Source: Gammaproteobacteria bacterium
GTDB lineage: Bacteria; Pseudomonadota; Gammaproteobacteria; JAADGQ01
Assembly: GCA_021648145.1 (NCBI GenBank)
Contig: JAKITI010000005.1
Span: forward strand, 82,427 to 146,426
Direction: 5' to 3'
DNA: 64,000 nucleotides
Position numbers and translations under genes: made by a program. Below are positions 7,752-25,032 of the stretch, one piece after another (the first letter of the stretch is position 1; every line of letters starts with the position of its first letter). Below the pieces are notes generated by a model, which did no database searches, was not told the origin of the DNA, and saw only the letters and a list, made by a program, of their open reading frames with translations.

Positions 7752-7776
7752 TTATTTATCCCTAAAATGAAGTAGT

Positions 7777-8424
7777 TCATGCTGTCTTTAATTCAACGAT
7801 TAATATAATTTCATCTAGCACAGAAGTGATTTTACTGGATTGATCTTTCAATATTTTGACCAGTGAACGCAACATATTTACCACCGCTTGAAAGCTCTCA
7901 CCCCCGCCTTCAGAGACCTCTGCTTCTACAGCAGAATATACCGAAAGGTATTGTCCTTTTTTTGATAGTTCCTTCAGTGGAGAAAGTTGCTCCTGCAACC
8001 GTTTAAATTGCCTCTTCAATGACTCCACCTCCAAGGCCTCATTTTTTTTCATTTTATCGACTGAATGGCTAAAAAATTCTCTGGGTGTTTTATCGCTTGA
8101 GGCTTCGTGTTTTTCAAGAATACGTTGAAACATTCTTTTATTATTATCCAGCGTCACGACTTTGGAAGAGAGAGAGACAACCTCATCAATAATTTTTCGG
8201 GTGCTGAGTATGCAGTGAGAAACATCATCACTCAGTAGCTGAATATCCTGCGTCAAGACCCTAAAAGTATTTCCATGACTGCCTGCTCGTGCAGCTGCAC
8301 AGCTTGCATTTGAAGAGAGCAATCGCATCCTTTTCGTCAGCGGCACCATTTTGTAAATTTCCGTATTGAGTGATACGCACCGCCTAAAAATATCCAGTTG
8401 CTCTGATGTCGATGAAAAATCCAT
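7777..8424 (-). CDS. Small soluble MCP-signalling-domain-like protein with two degenerate hairpin-tip motifs
   Basis: 215 aa with no TM segment. Residues 35-66 (LLSSNASCAAARAGSHGNTFRVLTQDIQLLSDDV) and 159-190 (YLSVYSAVEAEVSEGGGESFQAVVNMLRSLVK) both align with the MCP tip [30 protein letters not shown]. Confidence 0.55.
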   Translation of the reverse strand: MDFSSTSEQLDIFRRCVSLNTEIYKMVPLTKRMRLLSSNASCAAARAGSHGNTFRVLTQDIQLLSDDVSHCILSTRKIIDEVVSLSSKVVTLDNNKRMFQRILEKHEASSDKTPREFFSHSVDKMKKNEALEVESLKRQFKRLQEQLSPLKELSKKGQYLSVYSAVEAEVSEGGGESFQAVVNMLRSLVKILKDQSSKITSVLDEIILIVELKTA

Positions 8425-8533
8425 TTTTTACTCACCATTTATAATAGTTAAGAAGTGAAAAGTTAATCCGCTTGATTAATCAGGTAAAATCTGTATATTT
8501 TGGTTCTATCGGCTCTATACGAAAAAACTGTAA

Positions 8534-8770
8534 ATGCGCATCTACATGCAAATAACCCCAAAAGACCAACCCCTTCGCTTTTGTCACCTATTGGTACAGC
8601 AAGATTTACTCGGCAGTTGGGTCTTTATTAAAGAGGTCGGTTATCAAGGCGCGGCGGGACGCATCAAACGTGAACTTTGCAAAGATCAGTTGCACGGACA
8701 AAAAGTACTGACTCAACAACGCGATCTGATGCTAAGAAAGGGATTTCGTGTCGTATTCTCAGAAAATTAA
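8534..8770 (+). CDS. Small WGR-domain-like protein
   Basis: 78 aa: MRIYMQITPKDQPLRFCHLLVQQDLLGSWVFIKEVGYQGAAGRIKRELCKDQ...RKGFRVVF. From memory, this matches the short proteobacterial WGR-domain family pattern. Not verified by search. Confidence 0.5.
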   Translation: MRIYMQITPKDQPLRFCHLLVQQDLLGSWVFIKEVGYQGAAGRIKRELCKDQLHGQKVLTQQRDLMLRKGFRVVFSEN

Positions 8771-8800
8771 ACCTAACATGCGTATTCACAGGAGTTAAAT

Positions 8801-10390
8801 ATGAATGACAGTAACCGATTAGCATCGGACTTATCTCCTGATTTGGGGCTGGATCAATTCCCGCAAGAGCCTTTTGATGATACAGATTCTCCTGAATTTT
8901 TTTACCCTGAGCACACCCGTATTCAGCGCTTACGTCTTTTATTACACCTTACATCACTGGATGAAATATTATTAATCATCGGCCAGCCAGGGGCTGGAAA
9001 AACAATGTTACTCAAGCAGTTTTTACTTCAAGCCAAAGAGAATGCTTCGGTCAATTTAATTGATGTTTCTGATATAAAAAATGAGATCCAGTTTCTCACG
9101 TCAATCGCTGAAGTCCTCGGCCTTGATCTGACTCAAAAAGAACCTGAACAGCCTTTAAAACATCAAATTCTTGATGCAATCAAAGATCTGCAACAAACAA
9201 AATTACGCACAATCCTAGCCATTGATAATGCTCACAAGTTAAACATAGAGTGCCTTCAATGCATAGAAGCGATTGTTCGTCATACCCAGCAACATAGCAA
9301 GCCTCTGCACATCGTGATCGCTGGGGATACCGAGATCCAGGAAACATTAGAACATCCAGACCTTAAAGCGCTAAAACAGAGCATTCTTCATACATTTGAA
9401 ATCCCACCTTTTGATGAACATCAAACGAAAGAGTATATTCTGCATCGCCTGCATGCAGCCAATTATCATAACCACGCATTATTTACACCTGCAATAATTA
9501 AAAAAATTTATAAACAATCAGAAGGGCTGCCTGAACGCATCAATACATTAGCCCGCCAAACCATTAACTCACAGGAAGAGCTGGCATTATTTGCATTTGA
9601 GACAACGACAGAAGAATCACAAGAAGAAAAGCCGACTTTAGCTTTTGTCCAAAAAATTAAAAATATGTGGAATACAAAAAGGCTTATTCCAGTCATACTG
9701 ATTGCCAGCGTTATTGCATTCATTTTTATTTTACAAAGCATCATCAGTAACCACTTTACCGATGAAACAACCACTCAACACACAGAAGCACTTATATTAC
9801 CCACAATTGACAAGACGACACAGCAACCTATTGCCACGAACAAAATAACAGAAAATTCAAACAACTCTTATTCGGCAACAAGTCAAATACCACCTAACAC
9901 CACCAATCAACAAACAACGCCAGAACCCACCGCAACCGAAACACCGCAGCACCCCAAAGAAGCAGAGCCTGAAATTATTCAGGAAATAGTCAATACCCCT
10001 AAGCCCATATCAAAGCCACCGATTACCACAATACAACAAACAAAAGCTGTGCCTGTTCAAACAGAAAAACAGACGACAAAAACACCTGCGATAAAAAACA
10101 AAGAGTGGGTTAACAAACAAAACGAAGAGCACTATACTTTACAGATATTTGCAGTCAGCAAAAAAGAGGCGATGCTTGACTTTATCCAAGACAATCAACT
10201 CATGGATCAAAGCACCTACTTAGGTTTTGAACGTAATGGTACAAATTTATACGTGATGTTCTATGGAAGTTATGAAAATCGTGACCTTGCCTCTAAAGCA
10301 ATCAACAATCTTCCCGTCTCACTTGCAAGCTTCAAGCCCTGGATACGCAGTTATGGCAGTATTCAAGAAGCAATAAAAAATAACCCATGA
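8801..10390 (+). CDS. ExeA/MshM-like AAA ATPase, then a TM segment, a Thr/Pro/Gln-rich linker and a C-terminal SPOR (peptidoglycan-binding) domain
   Basis: Has a Walker A motif (GQPGAGKTMLLKQF), Walker B-like ILAIDNAH and the TM segment LIPVILIASVIAFIFIL. A low-complexity linker spans ~9780-10090. The SPOR-like end reads EHYTLQIFAVSKKEAMLDFIQDN...LYVMFYGSYENRDLASKAINNLP. Confidence 0.7.
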   Translation: MNDSNRLASDLSPDLGLDQFPQEPFDDTDSPEFFYPEHTRIQRLRLLLHLTSLDEILLIIGQPGAGKTMLLKQFLLQAKENASVNLIDVSDIKNEIQFLTSIAEVLGLDLTQKEPEQPLKHQILDAIKDLQQTKLRTILAIDNAHKLNIECLQCIEAIVRHTQQHSKPLHIVIAGDTEIQETLEHPDLKALKQSILHTFEIPPFDEHQTKEYILHRLHAANYHNHALFTPAIIKKIYKQSEGLPERINTLARQTINSQEELALFAFETTTEESQEEKPTLAFVQKIKNMWNTKRLIPVILIASVIAFIFILQSIISNHFTDETTTQHTEALILPTIDKTTQQPIATNKITENSNNSYSATSQIPPNTTNQQTTPEPTATETPQHPKEAEPEIIQEIVNTPKPISKPPITTIQQTKAVPVQTEKQTTKTPAIKNKEWVNKQNEEHYTLQIFAVSKKEAMLDFIQDNQLMDQSTYLGFERNGTNLYVMFYGSYENRDLASKAINNLPVSLASFKPWIRSYGSIQEAIKNNP

Positions 10391-10397
10391 CACACAC

Positions 10398-10425
10398 AAA
10401 AGGGAGCTCACACTCCCTTTTTTAT
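10398..10425. terminator. Rho-independent terminator between convergent genes
   Basis: aaagggag-ctcaca-ctcccttttttatt: a GC-containing stem followed by a T-run, 8 nt after the stop at 10390. An A-run on the other side could serve ppa on the minus strand. Confidence 0.7.
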
Positions 10426-10441
10426 TATTGAATTATGAAAA

Positions 10442-10978
10442 TTACTTCAGCGAATCTTCGTAACGCTTAACACCTTCAATAATTTCAGCTTTAGCTTCAT
10501 CTACACCCACCCAATTTTCCACTTTAACCCATTTATTAGGCTCCAGATCTTTATAATGTTCAAAAAAGTGAGTAATCTGGTCGAGTAACAGTTGCGAAAG
10601 ATCTTCAGGTTTTTTGACATTAGAGTAAATCTTGCTGAGCTTATCAACAGGCACTGCAATCAATTTTGCATCAAAACCTGCTTCATCCGTCATGCGAAGC
10701 ATTCCGACTGGGCGTACGCGTATGACCGCACCACTTACTAAAGGAAATGGTGTCACGACCAATACATCAACAGGGTCACCATCATCAGATAAAGTGTTTG
10801 GCACATAACCATAATTGCAAGGATAGTGCATGGCTGTGCTCATAAAACGATCAACAAATAGTGCACCGCTATCTTTGTCTACTTCATACTTTACTGGATC
10901 ACTATGAGCAGGAATTTCGATAATGACATTGACATCGTTAGGTACATCTTTGCCCACACTGACTGCATTTAAACTCAT
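10442..10978 (-). CDS. ppa: Inorganic pyrophosphatase
   Basis: [74 protein letters not shown]... is colinear with family I PPase. The start is moved to MSLNAV, which is preceded by AGGAGA. Confidence 0.95.
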
Positions 10979-11223
10979 TGTTTTAATTTCTCCTGTTTGA
11001 TTGTTCACTTCACCGAGAACAAACCATCCTGTTCTTACGATGAGTGTATAACTTTATAAAGATTGGAAATAGAAAAGATTATGAAACGCAACGAATTATA
11101 GCGTTCTCGTCGCTAAATCTCAAAAATGCAATCAAACACAATATAAATCATGTCGTTTTATTGCCAAATCAGGCATAGTTTCGATTATAATATTTGCAAT
11201 ATTCAATCAAAGAGGTATTCGCT

Positions 11224-12893
<1,670 letters not shown>

Positions 12894-12967
12894 TCTGGTT
12901 TTAAAGGGATCGCACAATAGGTAAGTTATTTCGTGACCGCTCCTTAGTTAAACATGTTGGATTGATT

Positions 12968-13519
12968 ATGTGCACAATTGATCGAAAACAAAGTTTAGAG
13001 TTGACTCCGCAAAAGTCAATATTTTTCTATTTGCAGAACGGATGGCTACGTGCTGTTCTGTTTGCCCTGATTTGGTGGATACTCACTGATGGCGTGGCCG
13101 CTTCATGGCTGGTTGGCGCGCCAGTGGTGGTGCTGGCGACATTGGCCAGCATGGCGCTACTGCCCCCTTTTTCCTGCTCCTTGCTCGGAGTTGTACGATT
13201 TGTACCTTTTTTTCTCTGGCGCTCCCTGTGTGGCGGAGCGGACGTGGCCAGACGAGCCCTACATCCACGGCTGCCAATCTCTCCAGGAGTGTTTGATTAC
13301 CCATGGCGATTGCCACCAGGGCTGCCTCGACTCTTTATGGCCAACACCGTAAGCCTGCTGCCAGGGACGTTGAGCGCCGAGCTAAGCGAGAAGTATCTGC
13401 ACGTTCATGTGCTCGATCAAACCGTTGCGTTTACCGAGTCATTGAAGGTATTGGAGCAGCAGGTGGCCGGAGTGTTTGGAATTAAGTTGCTGGAAACAGA
13501 CCGCTGCGGGGGTAAGTGA
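12968..13519 (+). CDS. mrpE: Mrp/Mnh antiporter subunit E
   Basis: ...WLRAVLFALIWWILTDG...LLPGTLSAEL...LHVHVLD is the typical MnhE layout. The start is uncertain: ATG 12968, TTG 12962 or TTG 13031. The last would give a typical ~162-aa protein and coincides with the G+C jump. Confidence 0.7.
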   Translation: MCTIDRKQSLELTPQKSIFFYLQNGWLRAVLFALIWWILTDGVAASWLVGAPVVVLATLASMALLPPFSCSLLGVVRFVPFFLWRSLCGGADVARRALHPRLPISPGVFDYPWRLPPGLPRLFMANTVSLLPGTLSAELSEKYLHVHVLDQTVAFTESLKVLEQQVAGVFGIKLLETDRCGGK

Positions 13520-13522
13520 GCG

Positions 13523-13795
13523 ATGGAGCTGTTGTATTTGGGCGTGGCGCTGTTTCTCTTATTGACGTTGATTGCCGGGCTGTGGCGCGTATTGCGCGGC
13601 CCGACAGCGGCAGACCGTATGCTTGCAGCGCAGTTATTTGGCACCACTGCGGTGGCCTCTCTGCTGCTGCTGGCGCAAGCGTTTGATCAGCCACCGTTGC
13701 GTGATGTGGCGCTGGTGTTCGCACTGCTGGCGGCAGTAACCGCCGTTGCCTTTGTGCGACGTATCTGGGCAGCTGGAGAGCAGAACCGTGACTGA
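13523..13795 (+). CDS. mrpF: Mrp/Mnh antiporter subunit F
   Basis: 90-aa three-TM protein containing LRGPTAADRMLA..., the MnhF signature region. It starts 3 nt after the mrpE stop. Confidence 0.8.
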   Translation: MELLYLGVALFLLLTLIAGLWRVLRGPTAADRMLAAQLFGTTAVASLLLLAQAFDQPPLRDVALVFALLAAVTAVAFVRRIWAAGEQNRD

Positions 13796-14081
13796 CACCC
13801 TGACATCACTACTGTTGATTACCGGGGCGATATTCTTTTTGGCGGGAACCGTTGGCCTGCTGCGTTTCCCCGACATCTATACCCGCCTGCATGCGCTGAC
13901 CAAGGCTGACAACGTGGGGCTGGGACTGGTGGTTGTAGCCCTTGCCCTGCAGGCGGAATCACTGGCCGCTGCGGGCAAGCTGCTATTGATCTGGGGGCTG
14001 GTGTTGCTCGCGGGCGCCAGTATTGCCCATTTAGTGGCCACCACAGCGCGGCAAAGAGGGATTAAACCGTGGAAGCGGTAA
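13788..14081 (+). CDS. mrpG: Mrp/Mnh antiporter subunit G
   Basis: VTDTLTSLLLITGAIFFLAGTVGLLRFPDIYTRLHALTKAD... is the canonical MnhG N-terminus. GTG 13788 overlaps the mrpF stop. The ORF-track maximal start at 13746 was rejected. Confidence 0.8.
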   Translation: MTDTLTSLLLITGAIFFLAGTVGLLRFPDIYTRLHALTKADNVGLGLVVVALALQAESLAAAGKLLLIWGLVLLAGASIAHLVATTARQRGIKPWKR

Positions 14082-14374
14082 CTCTGTTGCAGCAGGCATT
14101 CGATGCCGTGCTGGGGGTCGCTTTGTTATGGCTGGCCTGGCAGGCGCTGGCAAGTCCAGAACTGTTTCGGGCGATTGTGCTGTTTATCGCCTTCGGGCTG
14201 TTGATGGCGCTGGCCTGGGTGCGGCTTGATGCCCCAGATGTCGCCTTGGCTGAGGCGGCTATCGGCGCGGGTCTGACAGGTGCTCTGTTACTGGCGGCAC
14301 TAGCAAGGCTCGAATCAAAAAACAAAACAGAGACCCGCCACAAGCGTGACAGGGAGAGCGGAAAGCATGACTGA
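14069..14374 (+). CDS. DUF4040 / MbhD-like subunit (equivalent to the C-terminal part of MrpA)
   Basis: 101 aa with three TM segments: ...ALLWLAWQALASPELFRAIVLFIAFGLLMALAWVRLDAPDVALAEAAIGAGLTG. The GTG start overlaps the end of mrpG. Confidence 0.7.
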   Translation: MEAVTLLQQAFDAVLGVALLWLAWQALASPELFRAIVLFIAFGLLMALAWVRLDAPDVALAEAAIGAGLTGALLLAALARLESKNKTETRHKRDRESGKHD

Positions 14375-15050
14375 TGAGGCTAAACATCCACAGCTGTTTC
14401 GGTGGCTGCTTGTGGGGCTACTCTCTGTTCTGGCCGCAGGGCTTGGCTACGCGATACTGAGCCTGCCAGCGTTGAGTCCTGGTTTGAGTGAACAGGTCGC
14501 GTTAAAACTCGACACCAGCGGTGTAAGCAATCCGGTCACTGCGGTGCTGCTTAACTTCCGTGCTTACGACACCTTGCTAGAGTTGGCTGTGCTGCTGCTG
14601 GCACTGCTGGGAATCTGGTCACTCGGGAGCATTCAGGAACGCCACGAGCCATCCCCCGGCCCAGTGCTGGATATGCTATCGCGCCTGCTGGTTCCGTTAC
14701 TGATTCTAGTAGCTGGCTACCTGCTGTGGGTTGGTTCCCACGCGCCGGGCGGTGCCTTTCAGGCCGGTTCGGTGCTGGGGGCAGCCGGGGTGTTGTTGTT
14801 GCTAGCGGGTTGGCGTATTGAAGCTCAATTTACGGGACTATCACTACGTATTGTGCTGGTCATGGGGCTGGGAGTGTTTGTGGTGGTGGGGGTCGTGGCA
14901 ATACTCCAAGGGGGGCAGCTACTGGAATACCCACCCTCATTTGCCGCCACACTGATACTGCTGATCGAGGCCGCAGCCACCGTGTCTATTGGTATTACCT
15001 TGGCCGCCCTGTTTCTGGGTGGTCGACCGGAGACAGAGGAGCGCAGATGA
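14367..15050 (+). CDS. mrpB: Mrp/Mnh antiporter subunit B
   Basis: Carries ...GVSNPVTAVLLNFRAYDTLLELAVLLLALLG, the MnhB signature, and ...HAPGGAFQAGSVLG. ATG 14367 overlaps the upstream stop and has GGAGAG upstream. Confidence 0.8.
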   Translation: MTDEAKHPQLFRWLLVGLLSVLAAGLGYAILSLPALSPGLSEQVALKLDTSGVSNPVTAVLLNFRAYDTLLELAVLLLALLGIWSLGSIQERHEPSPGPVLDMLSRLLVPLLILVAGYLLWVGSHAPGGAFQAGSVLGAAGVLLLLAGWRIEAQFTGLSLRIVLVMGLGVFVVVGVVAILQGGQLLEYPPSFAATLILLIEAAATVSIGITLAALFLGGRPETEERR

Positions 15051-15355
15051 ACGCCGCTTTCCTCTATGCACTGGTCGGAACCGGACTGTTTACTCTGGGT
15101 CTCTACGCTTTGATTATTCACCCGCACCTGCTGCGCAAGATCCTCGCCCTTAATGTGATGGGCAGTGGGGTGTTTCTGGTATTGGTGGCACTCGCGGCTC
15201 GTAGTGATGGGGGCGCACCGGATCCTGTTCCGCACGCCATGGTGATTACCGGCATCGTGGTGGCCATTTCGGCCACAGCTCTGGCGCTGGCACTGCTGCT
15301 GAGAATGCAGGCTGAAACAGGTCGGGCTGAGCTTCCCGAAGAGCCGTTGGAATAA
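15047..15355 (+). CDS. mrpC: Mrp/Mnh antiporter subunit C (NuoK-like)
   Basis: 102 aa: MNAAFLYALVGTGLFTLGLYALIIHPHLLRKILALNVMGSGVFLVLVA...DPVPHAMVITGIVVAISATALALAL. ATGA overlap with mrpB. Confidence 0.85.
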   Translation: MNAAFLYALVGTGLFTLGLYALIIHPHLLRKILALNVMGSGVFLVLVALAARSDGGAPDPVPHAMVITGIVVAISATALALALLLRMQAETGRAELPEEPLE

Positions 15356-15361
15356 CTACTG

Positions 15362-16807
15362 GTGCCTGTGTCAATACTGGATATCCACTGGGGTGTGTTG
15401 GTCATTTTGTTGCCACTGGCCGGTGCTGTGGCCTGTTTTTTGTGGCCACGGCGTAACGTACCGCTGGGCCTGGTTAGTGCATTGGGTATTGTCACCTGCG
15501 TCGCAGGGCTGGGCTGGCAGGTGGTGAAACAGGGTACGCAACGCTATGAAGTTGGCGGTTGGGGCGCGCCGCTAGGTATCGACCTTTACGCTGATGGCCT
15601 GAGTTTGCTGATGCTGATGGTAACGGCAGTGGTGGGGCTGAGCATCAGCGTCTATTCCTGCTGCTATTTTGATCGAGACAAAGGGCAACATTTTTGGCCG
15701 CTGTGGTTGTTACTGTGGGCAGCGCTGAACGCCCTGTTTCTCTCCGCCGACATATTCAATCTCTACGTCACCCTAGAGCTGATGGGGTTAGCAGCAGTGG
15801 CGCTGGTGGCATTAGCTGGGGGTGCGCATGCACTGAACGGTGCTATGCGTTACCTGCTGGTCAGCCTGCTGGGGTCGCTGTGCTATCTGCTGGGTGTTGC
15901 GCTGCTCTATCATAGCTTTGGTAGCGTTGACATTGCGATATTGGCCACGCGGGTAGAGCCTTCCCCCGCCGCGTGGGTAGCGATGGGGCTGATAAGTGCC
16001 GGATTGCTGCTTAAAACGGCGCTGTTTCCGCTGCACTTTTGGCTACCATCGGCCCATGCTAGTGCCCCGACACCCGTAAGCGCGCTGCTGTCCGCGCTGG
16101 TGGTGAAAGCGTCGTTTTATATTTTGCTGCGTCTGTGGCTGGAGGTCTTCCCTCTGGCCAACGCCGCGCTGGCTCAGTTACTGGGTTTGCTCGGCGCGGC
16201 GGCTGTGCTCTGGGGCGGATTTCAGGCGCTGCGCCAGACGCGACTTAAATTGCTGATCGCCTACTCCACCGTGGCACAAATAGGCTATCTGTTTCTGGCC
16301 TTTCCGTTGGCGAGCATCACTGGCTGGAGGGGGGCGCTCTATCTGCTGCTATCCCACGCCGCAGCCAAGACGGCCATGTTCATGGCGGCTGGCAACATCC
16401 TCTATTTTGGCGGACATGATCGTATTGCCGACCTTGATCGTGTCGTGCAGCAACTGCCCCTAACGATGACTGCCTTTGCCCTGGCGGGTGTCAGCATTAT
16501 GGGTCTGCCACCCAGTGGCGGATTTATCGCCAAATGGCTGCTGTTGGAGGCGGCTATTCGTTCGGGGCAGTGGTGGTGGGGAGTCATCCTGATTCTGGGC
16601 GGAATGCTCACCGCCGCTTGGGTCTTCAAGGTTATTGGCTACGCCTTTACCCAGTCCGGGGCACCCCACAACACCAGGACAGTGCCCATTAGTATGGAAT
16701 GGACCGCTCTGGCCATGGCATTGCTCGCCATTGCGCTGGGTCTATTTGCCCCCTGGCCGCTGGCATTAATGGAGATCGGTTTACCTTTTGCTGGGGAGGC
16801 GCTATGA
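15362..16807 (+). CDS. mrpD: Antiporter-like subunit 1 (MrpD/NuoN-M family)
   Basis: 481 aa with a GTG start. It has the TM5 Glu (NLYVTLELMG), the TM7 Lys plus WLP motif (LLLKTALFPLHFWLPSAHASAPTPVSALLSALVVKAS) and the TM12 Lys (HAAAKTAMFMAAG). Confidence 0.85.
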   Translation: MPVSILDIHWGVLVILLPLAGAVACFLWPRRNVPLGLVSALGIVTCVAGLGWQVVKQGTQRYEVGGWGAPLGIDLYADGLSLLMLMVTAVVGLSISVYSCCYFDRDKGQHFWPLWLLLWAALNALFLSADIFNLYVTLELMGLAAVALVALAGGAHALNGAMRYLLVSLLGSLCYLLGVALLYHSFGSVDIAILATRVEPSPAAWVAMGLISAGLLLKTALFPLHFWLPSAHASAPTPVSALLSALVVKASFYILLRLWLEVFPLANAALAQLLGLLGAAAVLWGGFQALRQTRLKLLIAYSTVAQIGYLFLAFPLASITGWRGALYLLLSHAAAKTAMFMAAGNILYFGGHDRIADLDRVVQQLPLTMTAFALAGVSIMGLPPSGGFIAKWLLLEAAIRSGQWWWGVILILGGMLTAAWVFKVIGYAFTQSGAPHNTRTVPISMEWTALAMALLAIALGLFAPWPLALMEIGLPFAGEAL

Positions 16808-18300
16808 ACTGGGATACCGGGCTGCCACTGCTCGTTCTTGCCAGCTCACTGTTGCCGGGATTGGTTATTTTTTTTCTGCCCGAGGAGCGCGTTGCAGCCC
16901 GTACCCGCTTAAATTTGGCCGGTGCCGTACTCAAACTGGTGCTGGTCGGGGTGATGATCTGGGGTGTTTTTCACGGCCACCATTACGAGGCTCGATTGCC
17001 CCTGCTGCCGGGACTGGATCTGGTGCTACGTGCAGATCCTCTATCAATGTTGTTTGTAGTGCTTTCAGCAGTTCTGTGGCTGGTAACAACCGTCTATGCC
17101 ATCGGCTACCTTGAGGATTCGCCGAACCGCAGCCGCTTTTTCGGATTTTTCAGCCTCTGCGTGACCGCCACGGTTGGGGTGGCATTGGCTGGCAACCTGA
17201 TTACCTTTTTGCTGTTTTACGAACTGCTAACCCTCGCCACCTACCCGCTGATTGTGCATCGTGGCACCGACGAGGCGCGCAAAGCCGGACGTACCTATCT
17301 GATCTACACCGTTGCAGGCGGCGCTTTGTTGCTGATCGGCACAGTATGGCTGTACACCCTTACCGGCACCCTGGAGTTCACCGCACGCGGTTTTTTATCC
17401 GTTCTGGATGAATCACACCACACAGCCCTGATCGTCATATTCATACTCTTGATCGCCGGCTTGGGCGTGAAGGCCGCTCTGATTCCCCTGCATGGCTGGC
17501 TACCACAGGCAATGGTAGCCCCCGCTCCGGTAAGCGCATTGTTGCATGCGGTTGCGGTAGTGAAGGCGGGTGCCTTCGGTATCGTGCGCGTGGTCTACGA
17601 TGTCTATGGCATCCAGTTTGCAGCGAGCCTAGGGGTGATGTTGCCATTGGCGATAGTGGCCGCTGTAACTATTATTTACGCTTCGATGCGAGCACTATTT
17701 CAGGATGATCTGAAACGCCGACTGGCATTCTCCACCGTCAGCCAGGTTGCCTATATCGTGCTTGGCATCGCTATTGTCGGTCCTATTGCGGCTGTCGGTG
17801 GCTTGGTGCATCTGGTGCATCAGGGCGTGATGAAAATCACCCTGTTTTTCTGCGCCGGCAATCTGGCCGAGACGCTGGGAATTCACAAAGTCAGCGAAAT
17901 GAATGGTGTCGGGAAGCGCATGCCCTGGACCATGGCCGCCTTTACTATCGCCGCCTTTGGCATGATTGGCGCGCCACCACTGGCCGGTTTTATCAGTAAA
18001 TGGTATCTGGGGTTAGGGGCACTGGATGTCGGACAGGGATGGGTGGTTTTTATCCTCGCTGGCAGCAGCCTGCTTAACGCGGCCTATTTCCTGCCTATTC
18101 TGTACGCTGCCTGGTTCAAGGAGCCAGTTGGCTCATGGCCTGCCGAGCGTTGCTTCGGGCGGCATGAGACGGCGTGGGCGCTATTGGCGCCACCACTGGT
18201 GACCGCTTTTCTCACCCTGACCCTGGGCTTGCTGGCATCAGCGCCGTTCAGCCCGCTGCAATGGGCGCGTTTTATCACAACTCTGGAATATGCGCCATGA
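16804..18300 (+). CDS. Antiporter-like subunit 2 (MrpD/MrpA-NuoL family)
   Basis: ATG 16804 overlaps the upstream stop (ATGA). Motifs present: FLLFYELLTLATYPLIV, GVKAALIPLHGWLPQAMVAPAPVSALLHAVAVVKAG and HQGVMKITLFFCAG. Confidence 0.85.
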   Translation: MNWDTGLPLLVLASSLLPGLVIFFLPEERVAARTRLNLAGAVLKLVLVGVMIWGVFHGHHYEARLPLLPGLDLVLRADPLSMLFVVLSAVLWLVTTVYAIGYLEDSPNRSRFFGFFSLCVTATVGVALAGNLITFLLFYELLTLATYPLIVHRGTDEARKAGRTYLIYTVAGGALLLIGTVWLYTLTGTLEFTARGFLSVLDESHHTALIVIFILLIAGLGVKAALIPLHGWLPQAMVAPAPVSALLHAVAVVKAGAFGIVRVVYDVYGIQFAASLGVMLPLAIVAAVTIIYASMRALFQDDLKRRLAFSTVSQVAYIVLGIAIVGPIAAVGGLVHLVHQGVMKITLFFCAGNLAETLGIHKVSEMNGVGKRMPWTMAAFTIAAFGMIGAPPLAGFISKWYLGLGALDVGQGWVVFILAGSSLLNAAYFLPILYAAWFKEPVGSWPAERCFGRHETAWALLAPPLVTAFLTLTLGLLASAPFSPLQWARFITTLEYAP

Positions 18301-19598
18301 ACAGTACGCTGAGCCTGTTTCTGTTGCTAGCGGTACCGTGCTTACCACTGTTACTGGCATTTCCAGCACTACGCTCGCGCCTCACCTGGCCTTGCCATAT
18401 CGCCCTTTTACCGGTGCTTATTCTTGTGGTTATCCCGGTGGATATTTCCATTGATCTGCCCTGGCTGTTGCTTGGCACTGGACTTGCTATAGACAATGCG
18501 TCCCGAATGTTACTGGTGATGTCACTGCTACTTTGGGCGGTTGCCGCGACTCTTTTACATCGATCCAAAAAGAGACCTGAGGACGGTTATCGCGCGACCT
18601 TTTTTTTGCTCACCCTAGCGGGTAATCTGGGAGCGATTCTGGCGACTGATCTGGTCAGTTTTTTCGCACTTTCAACACTGATGGGGTACGGATTTTTTGG
18701 CCTGCTAGTAACAGCAGGCGGCAAAGGGTCAAAGCGAGCCACACGAGTCTACCTGGCATTCCTGATTTTGGCGGATCTGGCACTATTTGAAGCATTGTTG
18801 ATCGCCGCTGCAACGAGCGACGGAGATCTGGGCTTCGCCGCAGTGCGCCAGACAATGGCCGAGTCGCCCTCCTCGGGCTTGTATCTGTTGATGGTGCTCA
18901 CCGCTTTTGCGGCCAAGGCTGCCATCTGGCCGTTGCATGTCTGGTTGCCGTTGGCCTTTCGTGCTGCCCAGCCGGGAGTGGCTCTGCTGCTGGGCACTGT
19001 TCCCGTGGCTATCGGGCTGCTTGGGCTTGTACGCTGGCTGCCGCTTGGCGAGATTGCCTTGCCTGGGCTGGGGTTGATCATCCAGGGGCTGGGCATAGCG
19101 GCAGTGCTCTACGCCATTCTGGCGGGGGTAAAGCAGGCTCAGATAAAGATGTTACCCGCCTATGCTTCCATTGTTGCCACGGGGTTATATCTCACCGCCC
19201 TAGGAGTGGGGCTGGCCGATCCTGTGATGTGGGATCGTTACGGATATCTGGCGCACTATTTCATTGTTTTTCTGGGACTTGGATTGGCTGCACTGACCGC
19301 TGGCATCGGCTGGCTGGAGGCGAGAAAGCCATTTTCTGTTGCTCCAGAAAAACAGGAAGACAACTCGACTCAGTGGTTTGAACGCTGGCCTGGTGCACTC
19401 CTGTGTTGGGGCAAGCAGATGGGGTTTAACACCTTGCCTCAATTGCGTGCTGCATGGCTGGCTAAAGTGGGGCAGCTCTGGCAATTCCGTGTATGGCAAA
19501 AGATGTTGGCCGATAGCGAGTATTCCCTGCAACACTGGACTGTTGCAATCACCCTGTTTCTGTTGTTGGCGATTGTAATCACGTTTATCGCCAAATGA
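18297..19598 (+). CDS. Antiporter-like subunit 3: a degenerate Proton_antipo_M-type protein with a C-terminal amphipathic helix and a terminal TM anchor
   Basis: ATG 18297 overlaps the upstream stop (ATGA). AAKAAIWPLHVWLPLAF retains the TM7 Lys/WLP motif. The TM5 position reads SFFALSTLMG, with no Glu. I found no equivalents of the TM8 and TM12 Lys. The tail is ...WFERWPGALLCWGKQMGFNTLPQLRAAWLAKVGQLWQFRVWQKML...WTVAITLFLLLAIVITFIAK. Confidence 0.7.
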   Translation: MNSTLSLFLLLAVPCLPLLLAFPALRSRLTWPCHIALLPVLILVVIPVDISIDLPWLLLGTGLAIDNASRMLLVMSLLLWAVAATLLHRSKKRPEDGYRATFFLLTLAGNLGAILATDLVSFFALSTLMGYGFFGLLVTAGGKGSKRATRVYLAFLILADLALFEALLIAAATSDGDLGFAAVRQTMAESPSSGLYLLMVLTAFAAKAAIWPLHVWLPLAFRAAQPGVALLLGTVPVAIGLLGLVRWLPLGEIALPGLGLIIQGLGIAAVLYAILAGVKQAQIKMLPAYASIVATGLYLTALGVGLADPVMWDRYGYLAHYFIVFLGLGLAALTAGIGWLEARKPFSVAPEKQEDNSTQWFERWPGALLCWGKQMGFNTLPQLRAAWLAKVGQLWQFRVWQKMLADSEYSLQHWTVAITLFLLLAIVITFIAK

Positions 19599-19660
19599 GC
19601 ACTCACTGGAAACGTTGAATCACCCTGTATCCGTAGACACCTTGGTATATTGGATTATTT

Positions 19661-20281
19661 TTAATTTTTTAACCGGATAGTAGTGGCATTCCACAGTGAA
19701 CTTATCGCTGCAATACCTCGCATTCCGTAGTGATGAGCGTCGTCAAGATCATTGAGGCTCATTCCTCCCAAAGCATATACGGGCATATTTGCGATACGAC
19801 AGAGCCGCTCCGCTTCAAGCCAGCCTAAAACCTCACCATTCGGATGAGAGTTTGTATCTTTGATCGGTGATAGCACAATAAAATCAATACCCATCTGATT
19901 GGCTTTTTCGATCTGCTCAGAATTATGGCAAGAAGCCGCCAACCGCTGCCCATGCATTTCAGGTCGTGTTGATAAAGACATGAGCTGAGTGCTCGTTAAA
20001 TGCATTCCAGCCAACTCTGGTAGATAAGTTGAATTAAATAACAATACAGCATCATACTGATCACAAAGCAGCGCTACTTTTTCAGCGAGCACAGCATACT
20101 CATCTGGCATGACTGTTTTTGCTCGAAATTGCACCAAGCGAACCCCCTTTTTCAGGCAACCCGCTAGAGTCTGAAGATATAAATTGTATGGATCAGTCGG
20201 CTCGGGCGTAATCAGGTAGCATTCAGGCAAAATAATCGACGTAATAGCCAACCGATATTTCCTGTATGTTATTTTGGGCAT
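19661..20281 (-). CDS. thiE: Thiamine-phosphate synthase
   Basis: ...CYLITPEP...GVRLVQFRAK...DFIVLSPIKDTNSHP...VYALGGMSLNDL...GIAAISSLW. The start could instead be TTG 20230, which overlaps the stop of the upstream small ORF. Confidence 0.85.
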   Translation of the reverse strand: MPKITYRKYRLAITSIILPECYLITPEPTDPYNLYLQTLAGCLKKGVRLVQFRAKTVMPDEYAVLAEKVALLCDQYDAVLLFNSTYLPELAGMHLTSTQLMSLSTRPEMHGQRLAASCHNSEQIEKANQMGIDFIVLSPIKDTNSHPNGEVLGWLEAERLCRIANMPVYALGGMSLNDLDDAHHYGMRGIAAISSLWNATTIRLKN

Positions 20282-20498
20282 ACTGCAGATAGCGACTCAC
20301 CTTGTCGCCTGAAGCCATAGAAGCTGAACTGTATAAAGGGTCTGACGATGCCTGCTTACTAAGTACCTCACCCTCTACCACCTGCTCATATTGCACAGGC
20401 GGTGTGTTCAAAGGTATAGGCGCGCGCGATTCACTTGGCCTGTGTGAAGCCACCATACCAGAAGCGTATGACTGAACAACTGAACCAGAAACGTTCAA
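20223..20498 (-). CDS. Hypothetical 91-aa protein (weak call)
   Basis: The ORF lies between the yfaZ-like gene and thiE on the same strand. Its stop would overlap a possible TTG start of thiE by 8 nt. The Ser/Gln/Tyr-rich composition has no recognisable motif. Confidence 0.3.
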   Translation of the reverse strand: MNVSGSVVQSYASGMVASHRPSESRAPIPLNTPPVQYEQVVEGEVLSKQASSDPLYSSASMASGDKVSRYLQYAQNNIQEISVGYYVDYFA

Positions 20499-20516
20499 AA
20501 AACAGACCCAGATTTA

Positions 20517-21080
20517 TTAAAAAGAAAATTTAAGACCAAAGTGCCCAGTCGAATCAATTGTGGCATTGTTTCCATTAATTTTTGTTGTCATTCTGCGGTA
20601 CCCTACATAGACCGATGCTTGTGGCAACACACCATATTCAACAGTCACTTTATATGCAAGAAACCGATCAGCATCCATAAATGATACAATATCAGGGGCA
20701 TAATTTAGCTGCCCTGTCACCCCAAAGCGATCCAGCGTTGGAGGTGAGTAACGTACCGTAACACCTGGCGCTAAAGCAGCAATATCAACGTTGTCGGGGA
20801 ATGTTGCGAAAAGCTTGAGCCCAACCCCAAGAAACAAGCCAGGCGCATTCGCTCCCACCTCATCAATCACCTGAATTCCCAGATTGCCAACTACGTCATC
20901 ATCTTCGGTATACAAAAACCCAATATTAAACTCCGCGTTACCTGGCTGGGTTTTTTGCAGCAAGGTACTGTAGTCCAGAGTTGCACTGTCATTGCTTAAT
21001 GCCAGATCAATAGTGCCTGCACCCACAACAGAGCAAAAGCCCAGCAAAGACACTCCAGCCAAAACACTCAACTTTTTCAT
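20517..21080 (-). CDS. Small outer-membrane beta-barrel protein, YfaZ-like
   Basis: Has a signal peptide (MKKLSVLAGVSLLGFCSVVGAG), an alternating beta-strand pattern and a C-terminal ...HFGLKFSF aromatic terminus. Confidence 0.5.
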   Translation of the reverse strand: MKKLSVLAGVSLLGFCSVVGAGTIDLALSNDSATLDYSTLLQKTQPGNAEFNIGFLYTEDDDVVGNLGIQVIDEVGANAPGLFLGVGLKLFATFPDNVDIAALAPGVTVRYSPPTLDRFGVTGQLNYAPDIVSFMDADRFLAYKVTVEYGVLPQASVYVGYRRMTTKINGNNATIDSTGHFGLKFSF

Positions 21081-21205
21081 CCGACATCCCTCTATAAATT
21101 ATTTATACTTAAACAAGCGCAGAATAAGTCTTTTATCAACACCATGCAATGCCAAGGAGCTTCTTTAGCTTGCACCGCTCATCGTGGTACACGATACTGT
21201 CAAGT

Positions 21206-21769
21206 ATGAATGATACAAATAACCTGACCAACCAGTTCCTTATTGCAATGCCCACGTTGCTTGATCCCAACTTTTATCACAGCGTCATCTACATCTGTGA
21301 ACACAACAGTCATGGCACCATGGGCATTATTATCAATCATCCTCTCGATATGGCTCTGGGCGATATTTTGACACAAATGGACATCGCCGCTGTCAATGAT
21401 GGCATCAAGCAAATGCCTATCTATCATGGTGGCCCCGTTCAAGTTGAGCGTGGCTTCGTTTTACATCGCCCTTCAAGCGATTGGGATGCTGAAAGTAAAG
21501 TTGCCGATGATATCGCTATCACAACATCTCGCGATATCCTGATCGCTTTAGCCAAAGGCGAAGGACCCGATGATGCACTGATTGCTCTCGGTTATGCGGC
21601 ATGGGAGCCAGGGCAGCTTGAGCAAGAGATTGCTGAAAATTCCTGGTTAACCTGCAACGCCAACCCTGCAATTATTTTTGATACTCCCAATCAAAAGCGC
21701 TGGTCAGATGCCGCTACATCAATTGGCTTCAAACTGGAACAGCTCACTCACCAGGTCGGCCATGCCTAA
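21206..21769 (+). CDS. yqgE: YqgE/AlgH family protein (UPF0301)
   Basis: MNDTNNLTNQFLIAMPTLLDPNFYHSVIYICEHNSHGTMGIIINHP... is the canonical family N-terminus. Confidence 0.9.
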   Translation: MNDTNNLTNQFLIAMPTLLDPNFYHSVIYICEHNSHGTMGIIINHPLDMALGDILTQMDIAAVNDGIKQMPIYHGGPVQVERGFVLHRPSSDWDAESKVADDIAITTSRDILIALAKGEGPDDALIALGYAAWEPGQLEQEIAENSWLTCNANPAIIFDTPNQKRWSDAATSIGFKLEQLTHQVGHA

Positions 21770-22217
21770 CCCAAAACCGAATCATTCACAAAAATTGGGT
21801 TGCCGTACACTATTAGGGTTTGACTTTGGCACTCAAAAAATTGGAGTGGCAGTGGGTCAAGAACTCACCGGAACAGCGAGACCATTGCAAGTTGTACGAG
21901 TTGTCAATTTGAGACCCGACTGGTCGATGATTACGGAAATTTTTAATACATGGAAACCCGATGCCGCTGTGGTCGGCATTCCTCTCAATATGGATGGTTC
22001 AGAGCAACCCATGACAGCATCGGCCCAGCGTTTTCAGAGGCAACTGGAAGGCCGTTACCAACTGCCCGTTTATGCCGCTGATGAACGCCTCACCTCTCGA
22101 GAGGCAGAAAGCATTTTATATGCCGGTGGAAAACGTGGCAAAGTTCAAGCAGGTGAACTCGACCCTATAGCGGCTCAACTTATCTTAGAAACCTGGCTGC
22201 AAGATTATAATAAATAA
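21762..22217 (+). CDS. ruvX: Holliday-junction resolvase-like RuvX (YqgF)
   Basis: ...RTLLGFDFGTQKIGVAVGQ...DAAVVGIPLNMDGSEQ...ADERLTSREAE. ATG 21762 overlaps the end of yqgE, the usual yqgE-yqgF pairing. Confidence 0.9.
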   Translation: MPNPKPNHSQKLGCRTLLGFDFGTQKIGVAVGQELTGTARPLQVVRVVNLRPDWSMITEIFNTWKPDAAVVGIPLNMDGSEQPMTASAQRFQRQLEGRYQLPVYAADERLTSREAESILYAGGKRGKVQAGELDPIAAQLILETWLQDYNK

Positions 22218-22232
22218 CAAGACACTATATAA

Positions 22233-22739
22233 ATGACTCATACTCAGGCAGAAACAACAGTTTTAATCTCCAACATAAGCCGTGAACTTAAAGTACGCAT
22301 TGACGCAGGAGAGCTATGCAACCCTGCAATGATAGGAATTCATACAGGTGGCACATGGGTTGCGATGCGCATTCACCAACAACTTGAGCTCGAAACCCCA
22401 TTAGGTGAACTGAACATCTCTTTTTATCGTGATGATTTTTCACGAAAAGGAATGCAACCACAAGTCAGCCCATCCCACCTCCCCTTTAAAGTGGATGATC
22501 GCCATATTATTCTGGTGGATGATGTGCTCTATACAGGTCGCACCATTCGCGCTGCACTGAATGAAATTTTTGATTATGGCCGCCCTGCCACCATCACTTT
22601 AGTTGTGCTTGCAATGCGAGATGGACGTGAATTACCGATTCAGGCCGATGTTGTTGGCAGCCATTTTGAGTTAGAATCTCATCAACAAATAAAACTGCAA
22701 GGCCCTGATCCTTTAAGTTTACGCATTATGGATATATAA
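22233..22739 (+). CDS. pyrR: PyrR, bifunctional pyrimidine operon regulator / uracil phosphoribosyltransferase
   Basis: Has the PRPP-binding loop HIILVDDVLYTGRTIRAAL. It is 168 aa and lies upstream of pyrB. Confidence 0.9.
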   Translation: MTHTQAETTVLISNISRELKVRIDAGELCNPAMIGIHTGGTWVAMRIHQQLELETPLGELNISFYRDDFSRKGMQPQVSPSHLPFKVDDRHIILVDDVLYTGRTIRAALNEIFDYGRPATITLVVLAMRDGRELPIQADVVGSHFELESHQQIKLQGPDPLSLRIMDI

Positions 22740-22753
22740 GGAGCTGATTCACT

Positions 22754-23749
22754 ATGAATACCAGGGATGACATCCCGCTTTTTGCGAGCTCTCCGACCAA
22801 TATTCAAGTCGATAATAAAGGTCGATTACGCCATTTTTTATCCATAGAAGGTCTCAAGAAAAAAGTTCTTTGTGACATTCTTGATACTGCAGAATCTTTT
22901 TCCAGTGTTCCCGAACAAAGTATTAAAAAAGTCCCTTTACTGAGGGGTAAAACGATTGTTAATCTATTTTTTGAAAACAGTACTCGCACCCGAACAACGT
23001 TTGAATTAGCCGCCAAACGACTCTCTGCTGATGTGATTAATCTTAACATTACCACCTCAGCCGCCAGCAAAGGTGAGTCGCTGCTGGATACATTGCATAA
23101 CCTGGAAGCCATGCACAGTGATATGTTTGTAGTACGTCATGCCCTGAGTGGCGCGGCTCACTTTATTGCTCAGCATGTATCGCCAAACATAAGCGTCATC
23201 AATGCGGGTGATGGCCAACATGCTCACCCCACACAAGCACTGCTCGACATGTTCACTATCAGGCGGCACAAAGGTGAATTTGGTGCATTGAAAGTGGCTA
23301 TTGTGGGTGATATTTTACACTCTCGTGTCGCACGTTCGCAAATTCAGGCGCTGACCACACTAGGAACCAATGAAGTGCGCATTATTGCCCCTAAAACTCT
23401 CATCCCTGCACATGCGACAACCCTCGGTGTTCATATTTACCACGACCTGAAAGAGGGTTTGCGAGGCGTTGACGTTGTGATAATGCTGCGCCTTCAGAGT
23501 GAACGAATGCAAGGCGCGCTTCTTCCCAGCGAACATGAGTATTTCCACCTATTTGGCTTGACGGAAGAAAAACTGGATGTCGCCAAATCGGATGCCATCG
23601 TAATGCATCCTGGCCCCATCAATCGTGGCGTTGAAATGGATTCAGCCGTTGCCGACGGTGTGCGTTCAGTGATTCTTGAGCAGGTCACTCATGGAATTTC
23701 AGTCCGCATGGCGGTGATGTCGATGGCCATGCAGCAGGGAGAAAATTGA
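22754..23749 (+). CDS. pyrB: Aspartate carbamoyltransferase catalytic subunit
   Basis: Carries [27 protein letters not shown] and HPGPINRG motifs. Confidence 0.95.
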
Positions 23750-25032
23750 TGAGCCGACTCTCTATTATTAATGGACGCTTGATTGACCCTGCCAACAATA
23801 TTGATGCCCCGCATGACATTCATATTAGCGATGGAAAAATTATTGCACTGGGTAATCCACCACAAGGCTTTAGCGCAGATCGTACTCTGGATGCCAGCAA
23901 CAAGATTGTTTGCCCAGGACTGATTGATCTACGTGCCGCAATGCGAGAGCCAGGGCTTGAGCATATCGCCACTATTGCCAGCGAAACGCGCGCGGCAGCC
24001 AGTGCAGGGATTACGACATTATGCTGCCCACCCGACACCCTACCCATTATCGACACGCCAGCCGTTGCCAACCTCATTCGCTATCAAGCCAACCAAGCAG
24101 GTTTCGCGCGAGTTTTACCATTAGGCGCACTGACCCAGTCGCTTATCGGTGAGCAGATTAGCGAAATGGTTGCTCTCAAAGAAGCAGGCTGCATTGGTGT
24201 CAGCAATGCGCTCAGCCCCATCACCAATACGCTCGTCATGCGTCGTGCAATGGAATATGCCGCCACTTATGATTTAACGGTATTTCTTCATGCCGAAGAT
24301 GCTTGGTTACGCAACGACGGCTGCGTCCATGAAGGTGCCATGAGTACCCGCTATGGTCTGCCAGGAATACCTGAAGCAGCGGAAACAGTCGCCGTTGCCC
24401 GCGACCTTGCACTCATTGAGCAAACAGGCGTACGCGCCCACTTTTGTGGTTTATCAACCGGACGCGCGGTACGCATGATTGGCCGAGCCCAACATGATGG
24501 CGTTAACGTCAGCGCCGATGTCACTGCACATCATTTACACTTGAGTGAAGTGGATACCGGCAAGTTCAACAGCATGTGCCACGTTCGCCCACCACTGCGC
24601 ACGGAGCGCGACCAAAGCAGTCTGCGAATGGGTTTAAAACAAGGAATAATCAGTGCCATTTGCTCTGACCATCAACCGCATAATGCGGATGCAAAGCTGG
24701 CTCCTTTCAGCGCCTCTGCTCATGGTATTTCTGCGTTGGAAACCTTGTTACCGTTGTCACTTAAATTGGTGGACGAGCTGCATTTATTGTCACTTTCAGA
24801 AGTGATCGCCAGCTTGACTCAGAAACCCGCCAGTATTCTTGGCATTGATGCAGGTACGCTCAGTATTGGTCAGACTGCAGACATCTGCATTTTTGACCCT
24901 GAACACGAATGGATATTGTCTGAAAACGCTGTGCAAAGTCAGGGTTTAAACTCCCCCTTTCTTGGCTGGGATCTGAAAGGCCGAGTATTTCACACTCTGC
25001 TGAATGGAAGAGTTGTTTTTGAACTTGAATAA
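23749..25032 (+). CDS. pyrC': Dihydroorotase-like protein, predicted non-catalytic (PyrC')
   Basis: Colinear with class I DHOase, but the first metal-binding motif reads IDLRAAMREPG instead of DxHxHxREPG. Its ATG overlaps the pyrB stop by 1 nt. This is the pyrR-pyrB-pyrC' order known from pseudomonads. Confidence 0.8.
   Translation: MSRLSIINGRLIDPANNIDAPHDIHISDGKIIALGNPPQGFSADRTLDASNKIVCPGLIDLRAAMREPGLEHIATIASETRAAASAGITTLCCPPDTLPIIDTPAVANLIRYQANQAGFARVLPLGALTQSLIGEQISEMVALKEAGCIGVSNALSPITNTLVMRRAMEYAATYDLTVFLHAEDAWLRNDGCVHEGAMSTRYGLPGIPEAAETVAVARDLALIEQTGVRAHFCGLSTGRAVRMIGRAQHDGVNVSADVTAHHLHLSEVDTGKFNSMCHVRPPLRTERDQSSLRMGLKQGIISAICSDHQPHNADAKLAPFSASAHGISALETLLPLSLKLVDELHLLSLSEVIASLTQKPASILGIDAGTLSIGQTADICIFDPEHEWILSENAVQSQGLNSPFLGWDLKGRVFHTLLNGRVVFELE

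Follow-up and report, generated by a model that had tools for sequence, protein, structure and literature searches.

How a GC-rich operon for a cation/proton antiporter came to lie among the housekeeping genes of a low-GC gammaproteobacterium, with no mobility machinery beside it, is the question raised by the locus described here. The DNA analyzed was a 64,000-nt stretch (hereafter, the window) of contig JAKITI010000005.1 in assembly GCA_021648145.1, positions 82,427-146,426 of the forward strand; positions below are those of the window unless another locus is named. Between hemB (porphobilinogen synthase) and a gene for a TMP-TENI domain protein, the window carries nine genes of the Mrp/Mbh type (hereafter, the block). 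Our answer, to which we assign a probability of roughly 0.85, is that the block is an Mrp-type (CPA3) cation/proton antiporter operon that was acquired horizontally from a higher-GC gammaproteobacterial lineage and inserted between these two genes. The recipient is a marine gammaproteobacterium of about 42% G+C from a sparsely sampled lineage, and the donor clade would include vestimentiferan tubeworm symbionts, Chromatiales metagenome-assembled genomes (MAGs) and the organisms behind certain hydrothermal-vent metagenome contigs. Atypical composition, an empty conserved site in close relatives, and discordance with housekeeping genes, by which horizontal gene transfer (HGT) is operationally recognized, were all found. 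A preliminary description of the window had proposed a transfer from a high-GC lineage, and the empty sites, the best matches and the contigs across the junctions all favor it, although several of its particulars have to be changed.

The insertion site and its junctions

Four genus-level relatives of the host have the site without the block: loci L087 (ENA ERZ23495399), L089 (GCA_054016435.1), L170 (VAPL010407521.1) and L171 (Logan SRR6439370). These contigs, reached via homologues of the TMP-TENI protein and look-ups of identical proteins, have 42-46% G+C and 82-88% DNA identity to the window. In each of them, hemB directly adjoins the convergent TMP-TENI gene, the arrangement by which the preliminary description proposed to recognize an insertion; the two genes overlap by 4 nt in L170 and L171, and are separated by 1 nt in L089 and by a 160-nt palindromic spacer in L087. 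L087 and L089 span both flanks and are syntenic with the window over about 20 kb, sharing the order pyrC-like, pyrB, pyrR, ruvX, DUF179, YfaZ and TMP-TENI on one side and hemB, adk, ppa and onwards on the other, whereas L170 and L171, both short, extend on the left no farther than hemB. Protein identities to the empty-site relatives are high (HemB, 95-97%; PyrB, 96-97%; UbiD, 94-95%; Adk, 90-92%). When species-representative genomes were scanned with HemB, the best 80 loci were 68-79% identical and none shared synteny.

An abrupt switch of composition in a metagenome-type assembly, with no mobility signature, is also what a foreign fragment wrongly joined into a host contig by assembly or binning would produce, and the preliminary description raised this concern. 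However, both junctions are crossed by contigs from other assemblies and projects. Contig L172 (JGI 3300001391, SWIR1_1004665) corresponds to window positions 11771-13994 at 98.0% identity, and over the 200 nt centered on the left junction it is identical except for a two-base swap in mnhE (13028-13029), the first gene of the block. L169 (VAPF01065242.1) corresponds to positions 19521-24238 at 99.64% identity (17 single-nucleotide differences) and crosses the right junction into the 3' end of D3, the last gene. Furthermore, the interior of the operon is carried by L091 at 99.67% identity, the same level of divergence as the host flank. In the look-ups of identical proteins, the TMP-TENI protein and MrpF gave matches, and D1 and HemB of the window gave none. 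Closely related strains, assembled independently, thus have the block with identical boundaries, and it is not an assembly chimera. A chimera would also need two precise false joins within one intergenic spacer; at the contig level, we regard it as refuted for practical purposes, with a negligible probability.

The edges of the block are sharp, as had been reported, but their positions differ from the earlier ones. On the left, the window and the empty-site relatives are homologous in DNA as far as 12883-12894, and on the right this homology stops at 19690; homology to operons elsewhere spans about 12957 to 19598. The first 70 nt or so of mnhE are AT-rich, yet they are homologous to relatives, the alignment with L001, L003, L090 and L093 beginning at about 12957. 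Judged from these alignments, the foreign DNA extends from about 12957 to 19598 and, with the orphan spacers on both sides (Table 1), the inserted segment is about 6.8 kb, instead of the 6.6 kb with edges at about 13030 and 19600-19640 that were given previously. The left spacer is identical in L172. On the right, just past the D3 stop codon, positions 19604-19634 are a degenerate 31-nt copy of the 3' end of D3 at 19533-19563 (74% identity, with the exact 11-mer AATCACCCTGT; family D15), which may be an integration scar or a small tandem duplication. From 19661, the right spacer gives the TMP-TENI protein an altered C-terminus, ending in SSLWNATTIRLKN where the proteins of relatives end in SSLWSF or SSLWIT.

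The absence of an integrase, transposase, tRNA gene or flanking repeat, noted in the preliminary description, was borne out by our scans. No tRNA or tmRNA gene was found in the 64-kb window, Rfam gave no match across the whole of it, and flanking direct or inverted repeats were at chance level only (for example, 12858-12873 and 19496-19511, 14 of 16 positions, both coding). The genes within 10 kb on each side of the block are all syntenic host genes common to the relatives, with no integrase or transposase among them. The block thus has none of the integrase or transposase, tRNA site and direct repeats of a classical integrative genomic island and, unlike such islands, the insert is trimmed to exactly one operon. 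It rather resembles the "additive HGT" clusters that have neither integrase nor tRNA, with which it shares atypical GC content, including that at third codon positions (GC3), absence at the syntenic site in relatives, and an accessory function in stress or ion homeostasis.

In the proposed course of integration, the block would have been inserted into the very short gap between hemB and the TMP-TENI gene, which converge, the incoming DNA being trimmed exactly to the segment from mnhE to D3, with loss of the CPA2 gene that precedes mnhE in most relatives (see below). Since no tRNA, integrase or target duplication is present, entry was probably illegitimate or microhomology-mediated, from transformed or transduced DNA; alternatively, a larger insert may have been trimmed later. 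No remnant of a lost CPA2 gene was detected upstream of mnhE: the identity of about 46% to relatives over the 35 nt that precede position 12957 is not significant.

Further differences were observed at or near the site. The spacer of L087 (10571-10730 of that locus) is a near-perfect palindrome (arms, about 50 nt) that was seen at no other of the 172 loci compared; it shares only the 12-mer GTGGCATTCCAC with the window (19684-19695; shuffle p of about 0.012), which is a weak lead. The same convergent intergenic site thus received different insertions in different lineages. A second presence/absence difference lies within 2 kb of the insertion: between the DUF179 and YfaZ genes, L087 (7392-8933) and L089 (1115-2656) have an extra gene for a 513-aa Polysacc_synt (flippase-like) protein, which is absent from the window (about 21080-21150), L170 and L171. 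Finally, of the 37 substitutions between the window and L172, 25 fall in a 193-nt patch of the 3' part of hemB (12626-12818), and the adjacent 1.1 kb across the junction into the block has 2. None of the sampled relatives is closer in this patch, which may reflect recombination over a short tract or a mixture of strains.

Composition and relatives of the operon

In 1-kb windows, G+C is 0.556-0.585 across 13-19 kb, 0.506 at 19-20 kb and 0.39-0.47 in the flanks, and in 200-nt windows it steps at about 13000-13100 and 19500-19600; the block (13.03-19.6 kb) has 55-63% G+C, compared with about 42% in the flanks. GC3 of the nine block genes is 0.559-0.688 (mean, 0.625), compared with a mean of 0.404 (standard deviation, 0.047; maximum, 0.512) for the other 47 open reading frames (ORFs) of the window. 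Even the genes for the other hydrophobic proteins of the window (grand average of hydropathy 0.56-1.01; cut, >0.5) reach a GC3 of only 0.40-0.51. Shadow ORFs of at least 60 aa number 24 within the block, which has 4.85 ORFs per kb, compared with 2.68 per kb outside it. The G/C-dominated third positions and the roughly two dozen unusually dense shadow ORFs of the preliminary description were therefore real, and its hand counts of G+C (21/60 at 1-60 and 39/60 at 14101-14160) are exact. Among the measures of composition that it recommended, sliding GC and GC3 show the switch, but tetranucleotides do so only in their raw form: the raw distance from the host mean is 0.040-0.049 in the block and 0.012-0.020 elsewhere, whereas usage corrected for base composition does not separate the block from the host (r of 0.69-0.81 inside and 0.63-0.90 elsewhere). 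The tetranucleotide signal is thus mostly base composition.

More than 100 homologues of D1, the first of three antiporter-like subunits, were found at 78-86% identity; their named sources include Gammaproteobacteria MAGs, a Chromatiales bacterium, Lamellibrachia endosymbionts and hydrothermal-vent metagenome. D1 and D2 are 84-86% and 89-91% identical, respectively, to those of operons in compositionally different, higher-GC contigs. By comparison, the host Dxs has matches at 97% and 84%, presumably within its own species and genus, and then at 72% or less, with Sulfuriflexus, Sulfurivermis and Thioalkalispiraceae at about 69-70%, and HemB outside the host genus is at most 79% identical (the best of the 80 species-representative genomes returned). 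The operon is thus discordant with the housekeeping genes and, as judged from these identities, is far closer to other lineages than the housekeeping genes of the host are. As the preliminary description anticipated for a transfer, the top matches of the Mrp proteins are in higher-GC Gammaproteobacteria and not in the host's own lineage.

The full operon recurs in many unrelated genomic contexts. In L001, L003 and L006, contigs of 55-60% GC, operon GC3 is 0.61-0.78 and close to flank GC3; the composition of the block is therefore native to such hosts. Over 12963/13030-19576, the window operon and its relatives share 76-82% DNA identity. A neighbor-joining tree of D1+D2 built for 52 loci places the window among L001, L003-L006, L093, L094, L096 and L102/L103, a clade in which flank GC3 is mostly 0.56-0.80 (L090, at 0.46, and L139, at 0.87, are exceptions), and most other operons of low-GC hosts form a separate clade. 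L090 (ENA ERZ23495399 scaffold_167, 7522-14243) is a copy of the operon with 84% identity in D1 and with MbhD and MbhE fused. It comes from the same metagenome as the empty-site locus L087 and shares no test gene with the host, and the tetranucleotides of its right flank are host-like (distance, 0.0086). The operon may thus be present elsewhere in the genome of some member of the host genus.

In most relatives, a CPA2 gene (Na_H_Exchanger and TrkA_N domains) is translationally coupled upstream of mnhE, with an ATGA overlap in L003, and in some, mnhE and mrpF are separated by a Usp gene, or one of the two is fused to it. Both CPA2 and Usp are missing from the window and from L090. The nine Mrp/Mbh genes of the operon that was previously called complete are all present, but its completeness is made doubtful by the missing CPA2 gene. 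The pairing of CPA2 with this Mrp subfamily appears to be uncharacterized.

Alternative histories of the block

Several observations weigh against the transfer or against details attached to it. One concerns the direction of change. The window, L170, L087 and L089 lie at roughly the same distance from one another (82-84% DNA identity), and the quartet splits 65/56/40 over informative sites, so that a gain on the window branch is not formally separable from one loss in the ancestor of the other three. If the root lies on the window branch, it is as parsimonious that the block was ancestral at this site in the host genus, possibly still as an older foreign acquisition, and was deleted towards L087, L089 and L170. 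No donor closer than 76-82% DNA identity was found, and this distance from any sampled operon would fit a long residence. For the same reason, the transfer is not shown to be "recent", as the preliminary description had it. However, no two of the three kinds of empty site are alike (4-nt overlap, 1-nt spacer, 160-nt palindrome), the C-termini of the TMP-TENI proteins also differ, and the sites resemble ordinary compact ends of convergent genes rather than deletion scars. A GC3 of 0.62, against 0.40 in the host and 0.44 expected with host codons (see below), also argues against very long residence, and the window operon is nearer to unrelated higher-GC contigs than to L090, the sole candidate from the host genus. 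We thus consider ancestral presence followed by deletion to be improbable; the composition, the position in the tree and the dissimilar, compact empty sites favor a gain on the branch of the window.

Another difficulty lies in the GC content itself. When the nine proteins were back-coded with the synonymous codon usage of the host, the expected GC and GC3 were 0.498 and 0.437, compared with 0.570 and 0.623 observed in the operon and 0.439 and 0.397 in host genes. About 45% of the GC excess of the block is therefore due to amino acid composition, as the membrane proteins are rich in Ala, Gly, Leu and Val, and the rest is foreign codon usage. Furthermore, the operon is GC-richer than its flanks at almost every locus examined, and its GC3 exceeds that of the flanks by 0.14-0.22 in L111-L113, L123/L124, L129, L144/L158 and L090, in at least six different low-GC contexts, so that something other than recency may keep the operon GC-rich. 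The other membrane proteins of the window also lean to higher GC3 (up to 0.51). These observations would suit a native operon that was never transferred, the GC content of which is intrinsic to hydrophobic proteins of this amino acid composition and to selected G/C-ending codons. Against such an origin stands the gap between the observed GC3 (0.623) and that expected under host codon usage (0.437). GC3 of the operon follows that of its surroundings over the 36 loci whose flanks could be used (slope, 0.67; r, 0.83), and operons fully matched to low- or mid-GC hosts exist, namely L156 (0.30 in the operon and 0.27 in the flanks), L163 (0.32 and 0.32) and L104/L106 (0.50 and 0.50 for L104); thus, high GC is not obligatory for the operon. 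The low-GC contexts with a GC3 excess share no flank synteny, near-identical pairs apart, and hence represent separate insertions, for which repeated transfer from mid- or high-GC donors is the simplest reading. The protein identities are discordant with the housekeeping genes and, above all, relatives of the host have no block here. Their empty sites largely refute a native origin, which we consider very improbable.

The block had also been described as un-ameliorated. With about 45% of the GC excess explained by amino acids, and with an operon GC3 (0.62) below that of the nearest relatives (0.65-0.73), this is not supported; the lower GC3 is compatible with partial amelioration. The related hosts L144 and L158, in turn, keep the GC offset after about 5-15% protein divergence. 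It can be speculated, although we think it rather unlikely, that the operon family is a mobile, self-contained cassette without mobility genes, which circulates among marine sulfur-cycle Gammaproteobacteria and keeps GC-rich codons for a long term in low-GC hosts through synonymous-site selection or biased repair. If so, the GC offset of the window could not serve as a clock, and the family would offer a natural setting in which to study the resistance of certain transferred operons to amelioration.

Other points bear on function. Only MnhG of the nine proteins passes its curated NCBIfam cutoff, the other eight being below theirs, and the block has no full-length MrpA. The subfamily is thus annotated by homology only, and ion specificity, and even antiport activity, are extrapolated. 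In addition, the scans for promoters and terminators described below were simple consensus scans.

Gene content, predicted function and flanking genes

Pfam places nine of the nine block genes in Mrp/Mbh families, as was proposed in the preliminary description, and the matches to PF04039, PF00420, PF01899, PF04066 and PF03334 (homologues of MrpB, C, E, F and G) are all above the gathering scores (Table 1). The tight coupling reported earlier is also confirmed, every junction being an overlap or a gap of 6 nt or less: in gene order, a 3-nt gap, GTGACTGA, a 13-nt overlap, ATGACTGA, ATGA, a 6-nt gap, ATGA and ATGA. The likely GTG start of mnhG overlaps the stop codon of mrpF in the first of these motifs, although the longest ORF begins at 13746.

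Table 1. Features of the block and its flanks (positions in the window), and accessory genes of related loci
Feature	Position	Strand	Remarks
hemB (porphobilinogen synthase, ALAD)	11886..12893	+	Left-flank host gene, intact to the stop codon; 95-97% amino acid identity to L087, L089, L170
Left orphan spacer	12894..12956		63 nt; no homology detected to host relatives or to upstream DNA of other operons
mnhE/mrpE	12962..13519	+	PF01899, 1.2e-25; TTG start, alternative ATG at 12968
mrpF	13523..13795	+	PF04066; identical protein on independent contig L172
mnhG/mrpG	13788..14081	+	PF03334; TIGR01300, 67.9 bits (cutoff, 63.1); likely start GTG at 13788
MbhD-like (DUF4040)	14069..14374	+	PF13244, 9e-20; NF009159; similar to part of the MrpA C-terminal domain
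MbhE-like and MnhB/MrpB domain protein	14346..15050	+	PF04039, PF20501; start GTG at 14346 or ATG at 14367
mnhC/mrpC (NuoK-like)	15047..15355	+	PF00420
Antiporter-like subunit D1 (MrpD/MbhH/NuoN type; Proton_antipo_M)	15362..16807	+	PF00361, PF00662
Antiporter-like subunit D2 (Proton_antipo_M)	16804..18300	+	Pfam match; same charged residues as D1
Antiporter-like subunit D3, degenerate (Proton_antipo_M)	18297..19598	+	Pfam domain matched over positions 1-195 of 294
Right orphan spacer	19599..19690		Present in independent contig L169
TMP-TENI domain protein	19661..20281	-	Right-flank host gene, convergent with hemB; PF02581 only
CPA2 genes in relatives	L001 4445-6148; L003 5870-7555; L006 4779-6440
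Usp domain genes in relatives	L001 6927-7898; L006 7083-8339

D1 and D2 match PF00361 over its full length, and their top matches among solved structures are MbhH (6cfw_H), the H subunit of MBS (6u8y_H) and MrpD (6z16_D and 7qru_D). As read from the alignment, both retain the Glu of transmembrane segment (TM) 5 and the Lys of TM7, TM8 and TM12; D2 is the most conserved protein of the operon, with up to 91% identity to relatives. D3 has another residue in place of the TM5 Glu and has lost both the TM8 Lys and the TM12 segment; nevertheless, every close relative has a conserved D3 (59-69% identity) as the last gene of its operon, which suggests a structural rather than an ion-conducting role. 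In place of a full-length MrpA, the C-terminal domain of this protein is represented by the separate MbhD-like and MbhE-like proteins, and the MbhE/MnhB protein also matches the C-terminal part of MrpA models. D1 and D2 carry Proton_antipo_N, and neither scores better on MrpA than on MrpD models; either may fill the MrpA role. No gene for a redox arm (NuoB/C/D/I-like or NuoH-like) was found among the nine block genes, in the flanks or beside the operons of relatives. The predicted complex is thus a stand-alone antiporter and not a respiratory complex of the Mbh/Mbx type.

The block can be compared with known systems. Group 3 Mrp systems have all subunit types in an order other than ABCDEFG, with duplicated mrpD and/or mrpB, examples being mrpCD1D2EFGAB of Aphanothece halophytica and the Synechocystis-type clusters (Ito, Morino and Krulwich 2017, PMC5703873). 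The order found here, E-F-G-MbhD-MbhE/B-C-D-D-D', agrees with this definition: the block has duplicated MrpD-type subunits, short separate A/B-type proteins, and C, E, F and G in one operon, and its order (EFG-A'B-C-D1-D2) is a circular permutation of the cyanobacterial CD1D2EFGAB. Unlike the Group 3 examples, it has a third, degenerate MrpD-like gene (D3) and is gammaproteobacterial, and most of its relatives add CPA2/TrkA_N and sometimes Usp. With the membrane arm of Pyrococcus furiosus MBH/MBS (MbhA-H; 6cfw and 6u8y), the block shares the order E/F/G-like, MbhD, MbhE, B-like, C-like and H, as well as the Pfam domains MbhD and MbhE, and MbhH is the best Protein Data Bank match of both D1 and D2; however, no hydrogenase or ferredoxin-oxidizing peripheral arm (MbhI-N, NuoB/C/D/H/I-like) lies in or beside it. 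Like the Group 1/2 Mrp of Bacillus, Anoxybacillus and Dietzia (7qru, 6z16 and 7d3u), it has homologues of MrpB-G and the Glu and Lys residues of D1/D2, but it differs from them in the absence of a full-length MrpA, in the split of the MrpA C-terminal domain into MbhD and MbhE, and in gene order.

By analogy with the solved Mrp/Mbh structures, the small subunits E, F, G, MbhD, MbhE/B and C would form a cation-translocating module, and the residues kept by D1 and D2 are those typical of the proton channels of MrpD/NuoN-type subunits. From membership in the family, the complex is predicted to exchange Na+ (or K+) for H+ by means of the proton-motive force. No biochemically tested member of this Mrp subfamily was found in the literature. 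The operon is co-directional with hemB, 68 nt downstream of it. The consensus scans gave nothing informative at either junction, and in the spacer between hemB and mnhE they detected no promoter-like or terminator-like site on the + strand. Since this spacer has no such site and the upstream gene, presumably with its promoter, was lost, the operon is probably transcribed by read-through from adk-hemB.

A low-GC gammaproteobacterium of vents or sediments would thus have gained a cation/proton antiporter from higher-GC neighbors, plausibly as an adaptation in salt, pH or Na+ cycling. The locus is a clean and well-controlled example of a whole membrane-complex operon added to a housekeeping region without mobility machinery. 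It also draws attention to an uncharacterized Mrp subfamily with the gene order given above, often coupled with CPA2/TrkA_N and Usp, which is very widespread in metagenomes of marine sulfur oxidizers and apparently was transferred often. Current understanding is not changed by this clear but ordinary gene acquisition, the value of which is that of a worked example and a correction of annotation. The points to retain are the clean empty-site evidence, the absence of a mobility signature, and the recurrent GC offset in low-GC hosts.

Among the flanking genes, the one on the right had been named thiE in the preliminary description. We rejected this name, as the protein scores 76.4 bits on TIGR00693, compared with a ThiE cutoff of 145.1, and has only a stand-alone TMP-TENI domain. 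Its top NCBIfam match is NF006530 ("Nudix family hydrolase"), at positions 125-314 of 315, and its counterpart in Nudix(MutT)-TenI fusion proteins is their C-terminal half. The Nudix domain is missing from the closest homologues (72-76% identity; P0122-P0126, from this genus), whereas nearly all of the more distant ones are fusions of Nudix and TMP-TENI. On the other side, the protein with AAA_16/AAA_22 and SPOR domains encoded at 8801-10390 (+) has an identity of only 60-62% to the syntenic orthologues from L087 and L089, although its neighbors are 85-95% identical; its gene is a fast-evolving one within a stretch that is conserved otherwise.

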